The notes: generated from the letters alone by a model not told the origin. A stretch of DNA of 64,000 nt from Thiolinea sp. (GCA_049614265.1 JBMZDK010000001.1:1400-65399), one strand, 5' to 3'; counted from the first letter of the stretch, positions 3,567 to 14,005 are shown. A program made the numbers and translations.

Positions 3567-4742
3567 TTAACGTAAACGGTAGCGCACACCCATTAACAGT
3601 GCACGGTCAGTACCATCCGGATTATTCATATCACTGCTACCGCTGACATTGGAAATTCGTGCCGTAGTCGTAAAGTCCAGAGAATTGCTGATTTCATAGA
3701 TAAATGAAGAACGTATTGAATTCGTTGTTACATCATCACCGCTCGCTGTATTTTTAGCGTAATTCAGATTCCAGGTATTTTCCCAATCAATACGGTCATC
3801 CACTTCGTGGGTCAATGACAACTGATTATTAAAATTATACCCATTATCACCATCATTCACGATTGCATTAAAGGTTGCTTCATTAGACAACTGGGTCTGG
3901 TTACTCAGCGGCTGATGATATTCTGCACCAGCAGTCAACAGGGGCTTATCCGTCAAACCGTCAAAATTAGTTCCCACATACCCCAGGCCGGCACGCACTT
4001 TCCAGCCATAACGACGCAATGAGATGTTCTCATCAACCAACACATCACGAATTTTCAGAACCCCGGCGGCTCCCAAATTTGCAACACCACCGCCGCTTTT
4101 AATGGCCGTCTCAATATCTCCCAGCCACTTCAGCTCATAATCACTACCGTGTCGACTGGCATACTCTGATTCTTTAGCAACGATCCCGGCCACTTGCTGA
4201 TAAACCGATTTAGCGGGCTTAGCATTCAAAATACCACGATGAACCAGCTCATCCATTACACGAATCGTTTTTGCCATTGGCGTTACATTCGTAACCCGGC
4301 CATAACCAACACCAGCACTGGCAGTGGTTTCTAAATCATCAAAGGCATCATTAGCCCGCAAAGAGGCGCTGCCAAACCAGAACGCGCCATTGCTGCCCGG
4401 TACAAAATACTTATCATACGTTGCGCTCAGGCCTGCGGTATAGCTGCTCTCGCTATCAGCACCTGAGGTACCGGCACGGCTCACGCTGCCATTCAGATCA
4501 CCTCTTACATTGAGATCCCGGTCTGCTGAACTTAAGGTGCGGTCAAAATCAACACCCAGATTCAGATTATAAGCAGCCTGATCATCCCCCCGGTTTTTAG
4601 TGACATTTAAATCACCGGATACATAAGCATCTTCATACGCGCTGCTGGCTTCCTGATAATCGTATAATGTTACTTCAGCCTGAACCAGAGATGGCCCCAA
4701 TAATGCACCGCAAACCACAGTTGCTAAGTAATTTTTTTTCAT
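3567..4742 (-). CDS. Putative outer-membrane beta-barrel protein (DUF481-like C-terminal half)
   Basis: Sec signal peptide (MKKNYLATVVCGALLGPSLVQA), alternating amphipathic beta-strands, C-terminal strand GVRYRLR. Confidence 0.7.
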   Translation of the reverse strand: MKKNYLATVVCGALLGPSLVQAEVTLYDYQEASSAYEDAYVSGDLNVTKNRGDDQAAYNLNLGVDFDRTLSSADRDLNVRGDLNGSVSRAGTSGADSESSYTAGLSATYDKYFVPGSNGAFWFGSASLRANDAFDDLETTASAGVGYGRVTNVTPMAKTIRVMDELVHRGILNAKPAKSVYQQVAGIVAKESEYASRHGSDYELKWLGDIETAIKSGGGVANLGAAGVLKIRDVLVDENISLRRYGWKVRAGLGYVGTNFDGLTDKPLLTAGAEYHQPLSNQTQLSNEATFNAIVNDGDNGYNFNNQLSLTHEVDDRIDWENTWNLNYAKNTASGDDVTTNSIRSSFIYEISNSLDFTTTARISNVSGSSDMNNPDGTDRALLMGVRYRLR

Positions 4743-5312: not shown

Positions 5313-6587
5313 GTGAACATTGATGCAACACTGGAATGGTTCAGAATCTATACCGTCTATGTCACAGATTGGTTGTTTACAACAGATCGGGTGATTCAAT
5401 ACGCCATTGTGGTATTTAGTTTTATTTTCGCTGCCTACCTTAGCCGTTATGTCAGAGCAACGATCCCTGCTCCGGAAAGCGTGCTCGGGCGCCACTATAT
5501 CAAACGTTTTTTTCATCGCCTGTCCCGACGCACTGCTTTTCCTGTTGGTTTGCTCATTTTGCTGGGCGCAGGAATGCTCTGGCATGAATATTATCAGGCG
5601 AATCATAATATTCTGACCCGAACCAGCTATCTCGCTGTTGCCTGGCTACTTATCAGGATGGGCTCAACTTTTATCAGCAATCCAACAATTAGCCGAACCG
5701 TTTCTACGATTATATGGACCGTAGCCGCACTGAGTTTACTGGATTATCTCCCCCTGACGATAAGCTGGCTGGATAACATTAAACTCGATTCTGCCCCCGG
5801 AGGTCTGACGGTATACGATATTATTGTTTCCAGCCTCTCAGTTGCTGCTTTTGTCTGGGCCGCGCTTTCATTATCTGAAATCATTGATCGCTCACTTAAA
5901 AATAAATTAGGTCTGAGCCTTTCAGCCCAGGCATTACTTAGTAAAATTTTCCGCTTTAGCTTATTAGCTATCGCCTTTCTGATCGGTTTATATGCTGTCG
6001 GCATCGATTTAACCGCCTTTGCTGTTTTTGGTGGAGCAATGGCTGTTGGTATTGGTCTGGGTTTACAAAAAGTCTTCTCCAACCTCATTGCCGGGATTAT
6101 TTTGCTCTCTGACAATTCGATCAAGCCGGGTGACACCATTGTTTCGGAAGGACGTTATGGCAAGGTAAACAAACTCAGTGCCCGTTATATTTCTATTGTT
6201 ACCCGCGATGGCACCGAACACCTGATCCCCAACGATGTACTTATTAATCACCGCGTAGAGAACTGGTCACACTCGGATGAAAATGTACGTTTGAAATGCC
6301 CGATAGGAGTCCACTATGATTCCGATGTTCATGCTGCTATCGCTTTATGTATAGAGGCTGCCAGTGTTACACAGCGGGTACTGAAATATCCCAAACCAGT
6401 TTGCCTGCTTAAAGACTTTGGTGACAGCGCTGTTAATCTGGAGTTACGGTTCTGGATACGCGATCCCATGAATGGCTGCTCAAATGTCAAAAGCCAGGTA
6501 CTACTCGAAGTCTGGGACAAATTCCATGAAAACGGCATAAAAATACCGTATCCTCAGCGTGATTTACATATCCACCCTGTAGCATAA
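5313..6587 (+). CDS. MscS-family small-conductance mechanosensitive channel with extended N-terminal TM region
   Basis: GIDLTAFAVFGGAMAVGIGLGLQKVFSNLIAG (TM3), IKPGDTI, LIPND, YPQRDLHI. GTG start. Confidence 0.93.
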   Translation: MNIDATLEWFRIYTVYVTDWLFTTDRVIQYAIVVFSFIFAAYLSRYVRATIPAPESVLGRHYIKRFFHRLSRRTAFPVGLLILLGAGMLWHEYYQANHNILTRTSYLAVAWLLIRMGSTFISNPTISRTVSTIIWTVAALSLLDYLPLTISWLDNIKLDSAPGGLTVYDIIVSSLSVAAFVWAALSLSEIIDRSLKNKLGLSLSAQALLSKIFRFSLLAIAFLIGLYAVGIDLTAFAVFGGAMAVGIGLGLQKVFSNLIAGIILLSDNSIKPGDTIVSEGRYGKVNKLSARYISIVTRDGTEHLIPNDVLINHRVENWSHSDENVRLKCPIGVHYDSDVHAAIALCIEAASVTQRVLKYPKPVCLLKDFGDSAVNLELRFWIRDPMNGCSNVKSQVLLEVWDKFHENGIKIPYPQRDLHIHPVA

Positions 6588-6602
6588 TACTGAGAGGCAT
6601 AT

Positions 6603-7040
6603 ATGGATCCATTAATGACAGGATGGCGTGAGTGGATTACGTTCCCGGAACTGGGCTTACCCAAAATTAAGGCTAAAATTGATACAGGCGCCCGTACATC
6701 TGCCTTACATGCCTTCAACATACAACGCTATAGTCATGACAGTGAAGACTGGGTTAGCTTTGACACGCAACCAGTACAGTATGCCCGGGGGCCAACGTTA
6801 TCTTGTCAGGCGCCCCTGAAAGATATCCGCATTATTACTGATTCCGGTGGCCACAAAGAACAACGCTATGTCATTGAGACATTATTGAAAATGGGCAATC
6901 AGGAATGGCCAATCGAACTGACTCTGACTGACCGTAATAAAATGAAATTTCGCATGCTGCTGGGACGGCATGCAATGCGTGGCAGAATGCTGGTTGATCC
7001 CGGTAAATCTTTCCTGACATCACGCCGTAAAAAGCTATAA
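6603..7040 (+). CDS. RimK-associated retropepsin-like aspartyl protease (annotated family 'ATP-dependent zinc protease')
   Basis: GWREW, AKIDTGARTSALHA (DTG catalytic motif), ELTLTDR..MKFRMLLGR. Confidence 0.9.
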   Translation: MDPLMTGWREWITFPELGLPKIKAKIDTGARTSALHAFNIQRYSHDSEDWVSFDTQPVQYARGPTLSCQAPLKDIRIITDSGGHKEQRYVIETLLKMGNQEWPIELTLTDRNKMKFRMLLGRHAMRGRMLVDPGKSFLTSRRKKL

Positions 7041-7195
7041 TTACGAAGTACGTGCGCAATAGTCTTCAGGAATTTTATGCCCTTTGTTCCACGGGCTGGC
7101 AACATTAAACATCCGGGAACTTTTCCCACACTGCTTATCATCAAATGTGCAGCTTAATCTGCACGAACAACAACAGTAACAGACAAGAGACCACC

Positions 7196-8101
7196 ATGAA
7201 AATCGCCATTCTGTCACGGAACCGCAAGCTTTATTCAACCCGTCGCCTGATTGAAGCTGCTGAAGAACGTGGCCATACCGTTAAGGTGATCGATATTCTG
7301 CGTTGTTACATGAATATTGCTTCCCACAACCCAATGGTTTATTACCGTGGCGAACCTCTTCAGGGATTTGATGCGGTTATTCCCCGCATTGGTGCTTCGG
7401 TGACATTTTATGGTGCTGCGGTCTTACGGCAGTTTGAGATGATGGGTGTTTACCCCTTAAATGAGTCCGTTGCTCTGACCCGCTCCCGCGATAAATTACG
7501 CTCACTCCAGTTATTATCACGTCGTGGTATTGGTTTACCGGTCACCGGCTTTGCCAATAAACCGGATGATGTTAAAGAAGTCATTAAACTGGTCGGCGGC
7601 GCCCCGGTTGTCGTCAAGCTGCTGGAAGGAACACAGGGTATTGGTGTTGTCCTGGCAGAAACACAAAAAGCTGCCGAAAGTGTTATCGAAGGCTTTATGG
7701 GATTAAAAGCTGACATCCTGGTACAGGAATTTATTAAGGAAGCGGGTGGCTCTGATATTCGCTGCCTGGTTGTTGGTGGCAAAGTGGTCGCAGCGATGAA
7801 ACGTCAGGGAGCACCGGGCGAATTCCGGTCTAACCTGCATCGGGGCGGCTCAGCACACCTGATACGCATCACGCCTGAAGAGCGCTCAACGGCTGTACGC
7901 GCTGCTAAAATTATGGGCTTGAACCTGGCAGGTGTTGATTTGCTACGTTCGAATCATGGCCCTGTTGTTATGGAAGTGAACTCCTCGCCCGGTCTGGAAG
8001 GGATTGAGCGGGCCAGTAATAAAGATGTCGCAGGCATGATCATCAAATTTATTGAAGACAAAGCTAAACCGGGTAAAACAGCAACGATTGGCAAAGGTTG
8101 A
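7196..8101 (+). CDS. rimK: RimK ATP-grasp alpha-L-glutamate ligase
   Basis: [62 protein letters not shown]. Start refined to ATG 7196 (301 aa). Confidence 0.96.
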
Positions 8102-8228
8102 CCAAATAACACACCAAATGCTTCCTTCCACTAACACACCGTCTTGCTGCGTATAATAATCAGCACAAACTTTTTCCTTCAAATATGGTAAAAGAGTGGC
8201 GAAAGTGTCAAACAGGGGAAAACGGGTA

Positions 8229-9263
8229 ATGAAACAGGGCGCAATAACCATTGGTGGAACCACCATCCTACCGGGCGAACGCAAATATATCGATCTGCCA
8301 CTGCCACATCTTTATACTCATGCTCATATGGCAATGCCGGTTCATGTGATTCATGGCAAAAAACCGGGGCCAGCCATTTTTGTCTGTGCAGCCTTGCATG
8401 GTGATGAAATTAATGGCGTGGAAATTATCCGCCGCCTGTTACATACCAAATCACTGAATAATTTACGCGGTACACTCATTGCGGTACCTGTCGTTAATGT
8501 CTTTGCTTTTGTTACCAAATCCCGTTATTTACCTGATCGCCGTGACCTTAATCGTTCCTTCCCGGGTTTCGAACGTGGCTCACTCGCCGGGCGCATTGCC
8601 CATTTGTTTATGGAAGAAATCGTTTCACGCTGCGATTATGGTATTGACCTGCACACGGCAGCCTCCGGACGCACTAACCTTCCACAAATCCGCGCTGACC
8701 TCAGTAATAATCCTGACCTTAAAGACATTGCCTGTGCCTTTAACAGCCCGGTAGTAGTGAACTCATCATTGCGGGATGGCTCACTACGTGCGGAAGCAGG
8801 TGAGCAGGGAACCGCTATTATGCTCTATGAGGCCGGGGAAGCCCTACGATTTGATGAAATCCCCATCCGGGCTGGCGTTCGCGGCGTGATTTCAGTACTC
8901 CGCCATCTCAGTATGCTTCCCCCCGGCAAACAACGTAAAGCACCTTATCAGTCTGTTATCAGCAATAGCAGTAAATGGGTTCGGGCCCCCCAAAGCGGCA
9001 TCCTGCGCACCGTGCAGTCTATGGGCAAAAAGATTAATGAAGACGATATTCTCGGCTATGTCGCCGACCCGTTTGGCACAACAGAAGAAGTCATTCGCTC
9101 CCCCTCTTCAGGCATTATGATCGGACGCTCCACGCTTCCCCTGGTGCATGAAGGTGAAGCACTGTTCCATATTGCAGAGATAGACGACAACACAGATATC
9201 GACAACACACTCCGCCAGTTCCACCATGAGATGGACCCAGATATGGAAAACCCTTTCCGATAA
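8229..9263 (+). CDS. Succinylglutamate desuccinylase / aspartoacylase-family (M14) Zn hydrolase with C-terminal lipoyl-like domain
   Basis: ALHGDEING (HxxE), RDLNRSFPG, IDLHT, LYEAGE. Start is ATG 8229 or GTG 8196. Confidence 0.92.
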   Translation: MKQGAITIGGTTILPGERKYIDLPLPHLYTHAHMAMPVHVIHGKKPGPAIFVCAALHGDEINGVEIIRRLLHTKSLNNLRGTLIAVPVVNVFAFVTKSRYLPDRRDLNRSFPGFERGSLAGRIAHLFMEEIVSRCDYGIDLHTAASGRTNLPQIRADLSNNPDLKDIACAFNSPVVVNSSLRDGSLRAEAGEQGTAIMLYEAGEALRFDEIPIRAGVRGVISVLRHLSMLPPGKQRKAPYQSVISNSSKWVRAPQSGILRTVQSMGKKINEDDILGYVADPFGTTEEVIRSPSSGIMIGRSTLPLVHEGEALFHIAEIDDNTDIDNTLRQFHHEMDPDMENPFR

Positions 9264-9373
9264 AAACCGGTTCAACCGTTTACAGAAAAAACCCTACCAC
9301 TGGAGAAAATCAACAGACTATATTGTGTGCGAACTAACCATAATCATGGAGTCAGGACATGAGGGAAAACACC

Positions 9374-9607
9374 ATGATTTCATCAGGCAACGGTCTGGAA
9401 AACAACCGTTTTGCGGAACACTACGGCAGCACATTCAACGCACTCAGCAATCCATGGAGCAACAGTAATACCAACCCGTTTATTGATCACCCAACACAAT
9501 ACGGAGACTTCAGCGACGGGCATCCGTCAAAAGTTTTGCTGGTATTGAGCCTGATTCAGGCACTGGTTGCTACCATTGGTAGCGAACGCGTGAACAATGA
9601 GCAATAA
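9374..9607 (+). CDS. Small hypothetical protein (77 aa from ATG 9374)
   Basis: RBS-like GAGGGAAAAC before the ATG. It fills an otherwise empty gap and is followed by a hairpin (about 9635-9665). No recognisable domain. Confidence 0.5.
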   Translation: MISSGNGLENNRFAEHYGSTFNALSNPWSNSNTNPFIDHPTQYGDFSDGHPSKVLLVLSLIQALVATIGSERVNNEQ

Positions 9608-9680
9608 ATAAAAACTTACTCACCGCTTATGGCGCTCCGGCTCAGTCAAAACAGCTGAACCGGAGAACAAAAATTCAGTA

Positions 9681-12220: not shown

Positions 12221-14005
12221 CTAATAGGTAGCCGCCCCTGTTTTTTCATGAGCTGAAAGCTTACAGCGGTAAGTAGCAACCTGATTCCGCCCGGCAGATT
12301 TCGCCTCATACATAGCCTGATCAGCAAAGCGTAGTAGCTCCTTGGTAGACAATCCGCCGGTATTATATTGCCTCACTGTGCCAATGGAGAGCGTAAATGG
12401 CAGTTGCTCACCTTCCATTTCAAGTGGTTCCTGTTCTGCACAACGGCAAATATTTTGCGCACACTCCGCCAGAACAGCCTTACTTGCCTGATGAATATAC
12501 ACAATAAATTCATCGCCACCCAGGCGTGCAGCCAGATCACCGGGTCGTATGGAGCGTTGCAAAATAGCAGATAAATGCTTCAGAGCCTGGTCACCCGCCT
12601 CATGACCATAACAATCATTGAGGTGTTTAAATTTATCAACATCAATCATGATGATGCCAATATACTCACCGATCTCCTGCTGCAAGACACCACTTAAATA
12701 TTCGGTAAAATAGCGCCGGTTTGATAACGATGTCAGATAATCCTGAGTACTCTGTTCATAGAGTTGCCGGTTTTTTTCACGCAACTCTGCAGTAGCCAGT
12801 TCGATATCTCTTTTAAGAGAAGCATTCAAACGCTGAACTTCTGTATGAGAATGTTGCAAACCGGATAACAAATGTGAGAATGAATCCCATAATTGCATTA
12901 TTTCGCCGGGCGTATTGGGCGGTGCCTCACCAAGGTTGGCCGTGACATAATTTCCGTCGGACTTATGTGTAAGCCGGGTAAGCAAATTTATTGGCTGAGT
13001 AATTTTTCTGGTTAGCAGCGCGGCAGTGATTAAAGCGATGAACACCCCAATCAACAACCACACCATGGTTTGTGAACGGGCATCATCAAGCATTTGGGTC
13101 AATTCTGCTTTTGGCTGGACAATCATAATCCCCCAGCCCAGCGTAGGTATCGTACTGAATCCGGCGACCATATCTTTCTTTAACACAGGAGAATAGAATT
13201 CTGAGATTCCGGACTCTCCCGCCAACATCTTTTTTACAATACTTACCTTAGACAGATCTTTTATTGACTGAACCCACTTCTTATTTGGATGAGACGCCAG
13301 TTGCCCGGCACTATCAACGACTGCACAATGGCCTTTCACACCAAATTTGATCAGTGAACACATGGAACTGATCTGTTCCAGAGAAACCTCAGCGTAGATA
13401 ACCCCTGTGTTCTTTTTATTCTGATCAACAATGTGGTGTTTCATCAGGATTACCGGCTTGTTGGCCAACAAACTACTGAACATTGGGGACAGATAATCCC
13501 TGCCACCCTCGCTTCCATCTAAAACCGGCAATGCTGACAACTTTAATCCTGAATAGTCAGGTCTTTGCCATTCATGATCCCGGGAACCAAATTTAGTAAT
13601 ATACTCTACCGTCCCTTCGGGGTGACTGACATAGGATAACGCCACAAAATTTCCGAAGGAGTTCAGGTACCTATCTAATAAACGATAAACCCTGAGCTTT
13701 TTATTTTCCGGCTGGAATGGTTTAGAACCACCATTCAGCCTTTGTATTGAGTCAAGGCTCCGCAACTCCTGCCCCAGAGCATGCAGTGCTTCCTGACGGG
13801 TAGAAAAGAAAAGCGAGAATGGCTTGATTAGCGCTTCAGAAATCAAATGGTGTTTTTCGACCATGCGTTTTTCAACCTGTTGCCATGAGTTTTGGAACAG
13901 GCTGTAAACAAAGAAACCAATCGGTAGAAGCAGTACAAGTACAAAACTTGCCATAATCAGGCGTTTAATTGACCGCTCAAAGTAGTCCGCGAAGTATACC
14001 TTCAT
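12221..14005 (-). CDS. Membrane-bound diguanylate cyclase with periplasmic Cache-like sensor domain
   Basis: Two TM helices flank the periplasmic domain; QDYLTSLSNRR, MIDVDKFKHLND, RPGD (I-site) and RLGGDEF are intact. Confidence 0.93.
   Translation of the reverse strand: MKVYFADYFERSIKRLIMASFVLVLLLPIGFFVYSLFQNSWQQVEKRMVEKHHLISEALIKPFSLFFSTRQEALHALGQELRSLDSIQRLNGGSKPFQPENKKLRVYRLLDRYLNSFGNFVALSYVSHPEGTVEYITKFGSRDHEWQRPDYSGLKLSALPVLDGSEGGRDYLSPMFSSLLANKPVILMKHHIVDQNKKNTGVIYAEVSLEQISSMCSLIKFGVKGHCAVVDSAGQLASHPNKKWVQSIKDLSKVSIVKKMLAGESGISEFYSPVLKKDMVAGFSTIPTLGWGIMIVQPKAELTQMLDDARSQTMVWLLIGVFIALITAALLTRKITQPINLLTRLTHKSDGNYVTANLGEAPPNTPGEIMQLWDSFSHLLSGLQHSHTEVQRLNASLKRDIELATAELREKNRQLYEQSTQDYLTSLSNRRYFTEYLSGVLQQEIGEYIGIIMIDVDKFKHLNDCYGHEAGDQALKHLSAILQRSIRPGDLAARLGGDEFIVYIHQASKAVLAECAQNICRCAEQEPLEMEGEQLPFTLSIGTVRQYNTGGLSTKELLRFADQAMYEAKSAGRNQVATYRCKLSAHEKTGAATY

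Follow-up and report, generated by a model that had tools for sequence, protein, structure and literature searches.

The DNA analysed here is a stretch of 64,000 nucleotides from Thiolinea sp. (GCA_049614265.1, JBMZDK010000001.1:1400-65399), hereafter the window. Its positions 5313-9263 contain, on the plus strand, four co-oriented open reading frames (ORFs), which encode a channel of the MscS family, a RimB-like protease, the ligase RimK and a zinc hydrolase of the AstE/AspA type; the last three are referred to below as the trio. A previous reading of this DNA, made from the sequence alone (the sequence-only reading), had described the row as a channel, a DTG protease, a RimK and an M14 deacylase, and had proposed that a writer and an eraser are arranged around glutamylation. 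All four genes were found where that reading had placed them, on the plus strand and with intact catalytic motifs, and the writer/eraser arrangement is supported by the data presented below. The row represents a lineage-specific copy, headed by a channel gene, of a variant of the RimB/RimK system that is very common but only half-characterised.

Organization of the gene row

The row opens with the gene of the MscS-family mechanosensitive channel (5313-6587), whose 424-aa product has some 200 aa of membrane region at its N-terminus and matches PF21088, PF00924 and PF21082. A spacer of only 15 nt (6588-6602, TACTGAGAGGCATAT), which includes a Shine-Dalgarno-like GAGAGG, separates its stop codon from the start of the rimB-like gene (6603-7040), coding for a retropepsin-type aspartic endopeptidase of 145 aa (PF05618; DTGA at 6681-6692) that is predicted to be cytoplasmic. 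There follows a long spacer (7041-7195) with a promoter-like site at 7014-7041 (CTGACA-16-TATAAT), and then rimK (7196-8101), whose ORF is open from 7145 and whose product, counted from ATG 7196, is an ATP-grasp alpha-L-glutamate ligase of 301 aa (NF007764, PF18030, PF08443). The last gene (8229-9263) encodes the M14-like zinc hydrolase of the AstE/AspA family (PF24827), assigned to a RimK-linked subfamily; its ORF is open from GTG 8196, and ATG 8229 is the probable start.

None of the three gaps between the four genes (15 nt, about 155 nt and about 94-127 nt) was found to contain a terminator-like site, and the one between the MscS and rimB-like genes is too short to hold a terminator. A stable hairpin first occurs at 9635-9665 and is a likely terminator, with a fold z-score of -3.19 and an equally stable fold in 1 of 200 shuffled sequences. 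It sits in the gap between the row and a convergent minus-strand gene for an oxidoreductase of the DAO/GcvT type. The MscS and rimB-like genes would be transcribed jointly. With eight MscS-family genes and a single rimB in the genome (in addition to one rimK and one distant paralogue of the hydrolase), chance would not be expected to place an MscS gene only 15 nt ahead of rimB.

It should be noted that the spacers preceding rimK and the hydrolase gene are unusually long in the window, as they also are in the metagenome-assembled genomes (MAGs) of Thiothrix, and that both bear promoter-like sites; internal promoters are possible in 7041-7195 and in 8102-8228. A regulatory RNA in these spacers was considered and rejected, because they match no Rfam family and fold no better than shuffled sequences (z = -0.15 for the rimB-rimK spacer).

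The RimB-like protease and RimK

The protease scores 132 bits against PF05618 (cut-off 27). Its best NCBIfam model is that of RimB (NF052261), on which its 128.9 bits fall short of the cut-off of 200, and the models of RloA1-3 rank below (RloA 58-73 bits); on these scores it is filed as RimB-like and not as a RimB equivalog. The DTGA motif occupies residues 27-30, within KIDTGARTS (residues 25-33), and aligns with the PDB entries 9g59 and 9g58. On inspection, the N-terminus (MDPLMTGWREWITFPELG, beginning with MDPLMTGWREW) shows no hydrophobic signal, which points to a cytoplasmic location. The next gene on the same strand is rimK.

RimK, which has been known since 1989, is represented in the window by a protein that passes the NF007764 model 'S6--L-glutamate ligase' with 465.2 bits (cut-off 331), and in which a pre-ATP-grasp domain (PF18030, 157 bits) and an ATP-grasp domain (PF08443, 224 bits) are recognized. 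The alignment of the family models sets in at residue 18 of the ORF 7145-8101, so that translation is likely to start at ATG 7196 (MKIAILS). The protein is 89-90% identical to the RimK of the Thiothrix MAGs, and is predicted from its family to add alpha-linked glutamates using ATP.

The same pair of genes is known from the RimABK/RimBK operons of Pseudomonas, where a cytoplasmic, retropepsin-like RimB adjoins RimK, as in the window. There, RimK builds alpha-polyglutamate either on the ribosomal protein RpsF (bS6) or in free form, while RimB, which is co-transcribed with rimK, is an endopeptidase that strips polyglutamate from RpsF, cuts chains and stimulates RimK (PMC4741518; PMC7343187; PMC11957791). 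More precisely, RimB cuts any run of about five or more glutamates, and it is the synthesis of free poly-alpha-glutamate by RimK that it stimulates (PMC11957791). Two suggestions of the sequence-only reading are superseded by these data: that no product of such a gene group had been established, since RimB and RimK have already been characterised for alpha-polyglutamate in Pseudomonas work published between 2016 and 2025, and that the protease might expose new C-termini as acceptors for RimK, since RimB is an eraser of polyglutamate tails (PMC11957791). The Pseudomonas operons differ from the window in having neither a hydrolase of the AstE/AspA type nor a channel gene, and some of them include the EAL protein RimA, which is absent from the window; the papers on Pseudomonas RimB/RimK and on RloA do not mention a partner of the desuccinylase/aspartoacylase type or a channel. 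The RimK of E. coli belongs to the same equivalog model and has the same two-domain ATP-grasp architecture as that of the window, but the E. coli rimK gene has no protease or hydrolase partner (PMC10092738).

The zinc hydrolase

The hydrolase scores 134 bits against PF24827 (AstE_AspA_cat). Its relatives start at the equivalent of ATG 8229 (MKQGAITIGG in the window, MKQAPITIGG in the Thiothrix locus L001), while the residue numbers used here count from GTG 8196. None of the zinc ligands (H68 and E71, in HGDE, and H153) varies among 45 orthologues, nor does the catalytic E212. Also invariant are R110, R116, N119, R120, R159, N161, R166, R198, R218 and R263; a set so rich in arginines, of which there are eight, is of the kind that would be expected for an acidic substrate. 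The HGDE and DLHTA motifs align with those of 3cdx. An AlphaFold (AF2) model, with a predicted local distance difference test score (pLDDT) of 93.5, has as its nearest folds DoeB/EutE (6twm, template modelling (TM) score 0.77-0.83), 3cdx, uncharacterised members of the family, and CphZ (8ein, TM 0.73).

Against the equivalog models of the family, the protein stays well below the cut-offs: it reaches 86 bits for DoeB (cut-off 403), 32.5 for AspA (180) and 21 for AstE (306), and CphZ is reached only with a profile (E 2.5e-4). As judged from these comparisons, the hydrolase is a separate RimK-linked subfamily and not an equivalog of DoeB, AspA, AstE or CphZ. Its closest characterised relative is the N-acetyl-L-2,4-diaminobutyrate deacetylase DoeB/EutE (6TWL/6TWM; E 1e-17), which has the same zinc site; unlike DoeB, the hydrolase of the window has no ectoine-degradation context and is linked to rimK instead.

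To our knowledge, all the characterised members of the AstE/AspA family cleave an N-acyl bond, thereby freeing an amino acid with a free alpha-carboxylate. This chemistry suits both alpha-Glu-Glu and the terminal Glu of a tail, and we infer from this that the enzyme is an exo-acting step that finishes the work of RimB. The hydrolase would then probably be a finishing exo- or dipeptidase, acting after RimB as CphZ does in the metabolism of cyanophycin. The cyanophycin system follows the same logic, in that an ATP-grasp polymerase (CphA1), a dedicated peptidase (cyanophycinase) and a finisher of the AstE/AspA family are encoded alongside each other, and CphZ, the AstE-like enzyme of this cluster of polymer synthetase and polymer peptidase, finishes the products of the peptidase (PMC9974463). 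The two systems differ in that cyanophycin is a beta-Asp-Arg polymer degraded by a serine peptidase, whereas the window is predicted to have alpha-polyglutamate and has an aspartic peptidase, and the likeness in sequence between the hydrolase and CphZ is marginal.

A different substrate must be considered at this point. RimK and the hydrolase could make and break a small glutamyl metabolite, i.e. an N-acyl-aspartyl-glutamate or an osmolyte resembling citryl-glutamate, which the MscS channel would release on down-shock. The enzymes of the AstE/AspA type characterised so far act on small N-acyl amino acids, and DoeB is the closest of them by sequence and by fold. Moreover, animal RimK-like ligases make N-acetylaspartylglutamate (NAAG) and beta-citrylglutamate, according to a passage of PMC10219603 that cites earlier work, and bacterial ATP-grasp enzymes make the dipeptide osmolyte N-acetylglutaminylglutamine amide (NAGGN), although their family is a weak match to the window. 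However, the RimK of the window, with 465 bits on the S6-ligase model and an identity of about 90% in the genus, does not qualify as a divergent ligase; RimB, the conserved partner, acts specifically on glutamate runs (PMC11957791) and would be useless for a dipeptide; and no gene for an acyl donor or an acetyltransferase is conserved in the neighbourhood. The idea that a glutamylated osmolyte or peptide leaves the cell through MscS, as put forward in the sequence-only reading, found no support, the documented cargo of MscS-type channels being glutamate itself (PMC6110860; PMC12541555). On balance, a small-metabolite pathway appears highly unlikely.

Conservation of the trio

The distribution of the trio was studied in two sets of loci. 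The first, obtained with the hydrolase as the query, comprises the 80 best loci from named genomes, and spans gammaproteobacteria, Desulfuromonadales, Mariprofundus, one alphaproteobacterium and four archaea of the genus Methanolobus. Within 6 kb of the hydrolase gene, RimK is encoded in 73 of these loci and a RimB-like protease in 67, mostly in the order RimB-RimK-hydrolase. The second set is an even sample of 400 genomes of the window's class, 140 of which (111 of 308 genera) contain an orthologue of the hydrolase at a threshold of E <= 1e-60. Stretches of 20 kb were fetched around 135 of the 140 orthologues: RimK adjoins the hydrolase in 115 of the 135 loci, a RimB-like protease is also present in 105 of those 115, and the canonical order RimB-RimK-hydrolase is seen in 84. 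The conservation of the neighbourhood, which the sequence-only reading had proposed as a check, is thus confirmed as far as the trio is concerned, which behaves as a conserved unit. Neighbourhoods of RimK, an aspartyl peptidase and an AstE-like enzyme were reportedly noted by Iyer and colleagues in 2009.

The rimK and hydrolase genes are usually very close, with 0-11 nt (median 4 nt) between the stop codon of the former and the start of the latter, and the junction does not exceed 40 nt in 101 of 112 other loci. Apparent RimK-M14 fusions (open frames of 650-727 aa) were examined and ruled out, as they contain an in-frame stop followed by a separate ATG two codons on. Among 80 genomes lacking the hydrolase, only 17 have a RimK (at 57% identity or more), and about two thirds of the rimK genes in the window's class are accompanied by the hydrolase. 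The operons studied so far, those of E. coli and Pseudomonas, are therefore a minority architecture in this class.

The 14 low-scoring hydrolase matches among the 135 loci represent a paralogous clade without RimK: in these loci (L203-L216, model score below 400), RimK is never adjacent. The genome of the window also has its distant paralogue of the hydrolase on another contig (C6:38220-39290).

Is ribosomal protein S6 the target?

The row could also belong to an ordinary S6 system, in which bS6 receives a tail from RimK and is trimmed by RimB, the final residues being taken off by the hydrolase, while MscS is a coincidental, lineage-specific neighbour. RpsF is the sole demonstrated target of RimK in vivo (PMC4741518; PMC7343187), and the RimK of the window is, by its score, an equivalog of the S6-glutamate ligase of E. 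coli. In addition, the single rpsF gene of the genome encodes a protein ending in ...ETAPAAE, i.e. with one terminal Glu as compared with the Glu-Glu of E. coli, and S6 may therefore be an acceptor of RimK in this organism.

Two observations argue against bS6 as the sole reason why the trio is conserved. First, the trio is retained in four Methanolobus genomes (loci L005, L006, L013 and L055, each with the complete RimB-RimK-hydrolase set), in which no bS6 was found (no match to PF01250). Second, the trio is not associated with an S6 ending in Glu, which is present in 13 of 28 bacterial genomes with the trio (46%) and, where rimK is lacking, in 11 of 25 (44%; Fisher P = 1). Taken together, they make it unlikely that the conserved role is the tailing of S6 alone. 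In the genomes surveyed bS6 is probably not the only conserved target of the trio, and free poly- or oligo-alpha-glutamate, or other acceptors, must be considered. With a RimK about 80% identical to that of the window, the trio of Methanolobus looks like a recent transfer from bacteria into archaea.

As a further observation, the bS6 proteins encoded at the gammaproteobacterial rpsF loci (L217-L275) have long, acidic, low-complexity C-terminal tails of highly variable sequence; the final residue is Glu in about 45% of them and Ala in about 30%, whether or not rimK is present.

Channel genes beside the trio

The channel of the window matches all three core domains of MscS, at or above the cut-offs (Pfam, E 7e-5 to 7e-16), and remains below all the NCBIfam equivalog cut-offs (MscS, MscK, MscM, YbiO); by sequence, it is best described as an MscS-family paralogue of the size of YbdG/YnaI. 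Two Thiothrix MAGs, L001 (with 64% identity) and L002 (56%), were the only ones found to have a full-length orthologue directly upstream of rimB, and channels 45-50% identical to that of the window are encoded near the trio in two further lineages (L017, L066). Right after the hydrolase gene, a channel of 800 aa resembling MscK is encoded in L082 and L121, which belong to the window's own genus, and in L001 and L002, so that the channel partner of the trio varies even among close relatives. The search was also performed from the side of the channel: a single-protein query gave one relative, and its repetition with a profile gave 80 close relatives from other species.

In the 80-locus set, unbiased clustering of the neighbouring genes gave as the top families outside the trio MgtE (10 loci), window-type MscS (9), CorA (9) and MscK-like channels (8); in the even sample the top families were CorA (19), LysR (11, a very large family), MscK-like channels (8) and MgtE (7). 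CorA is the single commonest neighbour, being found at 19-22 of the 115 trio loci. Altogether, a gene for CorA, MscS or MgtE is present in the fetched flanks of 37 of the 115 loci, and within 1 kb in 22; an MscS-family gene is present in 16-18, which leaves 85% of the loci without one.

The significance of these figures was estimated in 80 trio genomes by comparing the observed neighbours with those expected from whole-genome copy numbers under random placement (Poisson P). CorA was observed beside the trio 16 times against an expected 0.43 (37-fold, P 5e-20), MscS 15 times against 1.42 (11-fold, P 4e-11, or 3e-7 with the background doubled), and MgtE 4 times against 0.54 (7-fold, P 0.002). 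In 11 of the 16 cases, the neighbouring CorA is the only CorA of its genome. As a control, rpsF was used as the anchor in 30 of the same genomes, and no CorA or MgtE was found within 10 kb of it.

The arrangements are various. They include MscS-RimB-RimK-hydrolase with overlapping junctions (L144), RimB-RimK-hydrolase-MscS-CorA (L122), CorA-RimB-RimK-hydrolase (L085, L110) and MgtE beside RimK (L099, L186), and the MscS genes beside the trio fall in four size classes. On a tree of RimK and hydrolase, adjacency of the channels requires at least 12 (MscS), 15 (CorA) and 6 (MgtE) changes of state; with changes so scattered, the adjacency was not inherited as a single block. Among the 17 genomes that have rimK and lack the hydrolase, compared by coordinates from whole-genome searches, a small MscS gene lies 0.3-1.7 kb from rimK in three (expected 0.08, P 9e-5), while no CorA was found near rimK in any of the 17.

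The linkage to MscS on which the sequence-only reading relied therefore holds in part: it exceeds chance, but the channel is not conserved with the trio (16-18 of 115 loci; 2 of 80 MscS relatives). MscS is not a conserved fourth member, an outcome that the sequence-only reading had itself named as a ground for refutation; its linkage is about 11-fold enriched and facultative. What had not been foreseen is that the Mg2+ channels CorA and MgtE are linked to the trio at least as strongly as MscS. In the full texts that were searched, no paper was found that joins RimK with a hydrolase of the desuccinylase/deacylase type, with CorA or MgtE, or with mechanosensitive channels, and the enrichment of CorA, MgtE and MscS beside the trio appears to be undescribed.

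These data also bear on the ordinary S6 system discussed above. The large proportion of trio loci without MscS, and the rarity of the trio near relatives of the MscS of the window, are what would be expected of a coincidental neighbour. On the other hand, coincidence does not account well for the 7- to 37-fold enrichment of three channel families in many arrangements, nor for the occurrence of MscS beside rimK also in genomes devoid of the hydrolase. Considering also Methanolobus and the S6 C-termini, we regard S6 tailing with an accidental channel as rather improbable.

The prominence of CorA suggests still another explanation, centred on magnesium. Polyglutamate, on S6 or free, would be a chelator or buffer of Mg2+ for ribosomes, or the cycle would raise the demand for Mg-ATP; MscS would be secondary, as a passenger of CorA. 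That CorA is the commonest and most enriched neighbour, and often the only CorA of its genome, is in agreement with this idea, as are the enrichment of MgtE and the overlapping CorA-MscS pairs found with and without the trio. However, no CorA gene lies beside the trio in the window genome, where none was detected with the CorA model and MgtE is on another contig, and MscS accompanies the trio or rimK without CorA in the window as well as in L082, L121, L144, G003 and G321. A magnesium-centred role is therefore quite unlikely.

The CorA and MscS-family genes that overlap or abut (L277 6997-9314, L279 6997-9296, L342 7857-9930, L122 10531-12803, L182 11033-14319) deserve mention in their own right. 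Such a pair, with or without the trio nearby, may itself be an undescribed unit of Mg2+ and mechanosensitive channels. Another ion-transport neighbour is a Na+/H+ exchanger, whose gene is located, in four loci (e.g. L102 12147-13325), between the hydrolase gene and an MscS-family gene of 1170 aa.

Proposed function

In the mechanism that we propose, the activities of RimK and RimB are those demonstrated in homologues, while family membership, conservation of the active sites, synteny and enrichment come from the present analysis; what we infer is which substrate the hydrolase cleaves, that the genes are co-transcribed, and a role in homeostasis. RimK, using ATP, would add successive L-Glu residues to a protein ending in Glu (possibly bS6) or to free Glu, giving poly-alpha-glutamate. 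The RimB-like protease, as a homodimeric aspartic endopeptidase, would cut the poly-alpha-glutamate chains, and the zinc hydrolase would free single glutamates from the short fragments or the remnants of tails, returning them to the pool of free glutamate. The task shared with the MscS gene located 15 nt upstream would probably be the control of this cytoplasmic pool: the cell could polymerise glutamate, set it free again or, under raised membrane tension, let it out through the channel. Elsewhere, MscS would be replaced or joined by Mg2+ channels, depending on the lineage.

In the cytoplasm, glutamate serves as the main anion and balances K+ and Mg2+ as their counter-ion. Channels of the MscS type are known to export L-glutamate: MscCG of Corynebacterium glutamicum and MscS of Bacillus methanolicus, which have the MscS core in common with the channel of the window, are efflux routes for it (PMC6110860; PMC12541555). 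They are not orthologous to the channel of the window, and MscCG has an extra C-terminal transmembrane helix. Nonetheless, if MscS-type export is considered together with the abundance of glutamate, all four products can be read as acting on one pool, which makes a link of the trio to the homeostasis of glutamate and cations plausible, though unproven.

A comparable connection has emerged for the rloABC genes of Pseudomonas and Vibrio, which, like the window, combine a retropepsin-like protease with an ATP-grasp ligase related to RimK. The mutants are sensitive to hypo-osmotic stress, the secreted RloA1-3 are needed for survival, and the authors leave open a role in 'glutamate-polyglutamate homeostasis' (PMC12239564). 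The gene row of the window is not an rloABC system: RloA is a secreted protein with a signal peptide, which the protease of the window lacks; no gene resembles the defining RloB, an inactive transglutaminase with seven transmembrane helices (7TM); and the ligase is RimK proper, whereas RloC is only about 24% identical to RimK. Weak circumstantial support comes from a survey of aquatic genomes, in which rimK is commoner in brackish than in marine genomes (PMC10219603). The RimK point mutation of a Cs+-resistant E. coli strain (PMC10831881) is anecdotal, its causality not being established, and it is not used here as support.

That the trio carries out a cycle of polyglutamate synthesis and degradation, with the hydrolase as the finishing enzyme, is in our opinion likely. 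The view that channels and trio are linked by a function which they truly share is more tentative and falls a little short of an even chance, and for the two propositions combined the arguments for and against appear evenly balanced. Several facts weigh against them. With regard to the hydrolase, its closest characterised relatives in sequence are deacylases of small N-acyl amino acids such as DoeB, and none is a peptidase. Plain modification of S6 is compatible with the terminal Glu of the organism's own S6. As for the channel, about two thirds of the trio loci have no channel gene within about 7.5 kb on either side, and the trio is near only 2 of the 80 close relatives of the window-type MscS in other species. 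The expected numbers of channel neighbours come from a simple model of random placement, and the MscS counts per genome that enter it may be too low, since the scan of the window's own genome gave 8 genes as compared with 1-2 in two genomes of the same genus. Finally, with long spacers that bear promoter-like sites, a single four-gene transcript is not assured.

If the hydrolase does supply the missing exo-acting step, then the system in its common form amounts to a full polymer cycle like that of cyanophycin, which would also serve organisms without bS6. The enrichment of channel genes, in turn, makes the question of 'glutamate-polyglutamate homeostasis', left open in both 2025 papers on these proteases, testable by means of shifts in Mg2+, glutamate and osmolarity. 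One may go further and imagine alpha-polyglutamate as a reversible, osmotically near-silent store of the main anion together with Mg2+ and K+, filled by RimK and emptied by RimB and the hydrolase, and coordinated genetically, in bacteria and some archaea, with import by CorA and MgtE and with efflux of glutamate through MscS, the tailing of S6 being a side activity or a read-out of this pool; we put this forward as a speculation that is, in itself, unlikely.

Flanking genes and other observations

The genes on both sides of the row lie on the opposite strand and are unrelated to it: upstream, those of a DUF481 outer-membrane protein, glmU and glmS; downstream, those of the DAO/GcvT-type oxidoreductase and of a Cache-GGDEF protein. 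A conserved small gene following the hydrolase gene was looked for and ruled out, as neither ORF 9226-9468 nor ORF 9359-9607 has a relative in the fetched loci. The DUF481 gene (3567-4742, minus strand), which is divergent from the MscS gene, occupies the same place in five loci of the Thiotrichales type (L001, L007, L047, L054, L065); this is local synteny, and the gene is not a member of the system.

In Pseudomonas, RimK is regulated by cyclic di-GMP and by the EAL protein RimA. The Cache-GGDEF protein of the window, a diguanylate cyclase, is encoded 3 kb downstream of the row (12221-14005, minus strand), and genes for GGDEF-EAL proteins adjoin the trio in 6 of the 115 sampled loci; these are large families, and their proximity may be due to chance. 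Lastly, a tamA-tamB pair, coding for an Omp85/POTRA protein and a TamB of 1250 aa, follows the trio in five or six loci of each sample (L012, L032, L066, L070, L099 and others).

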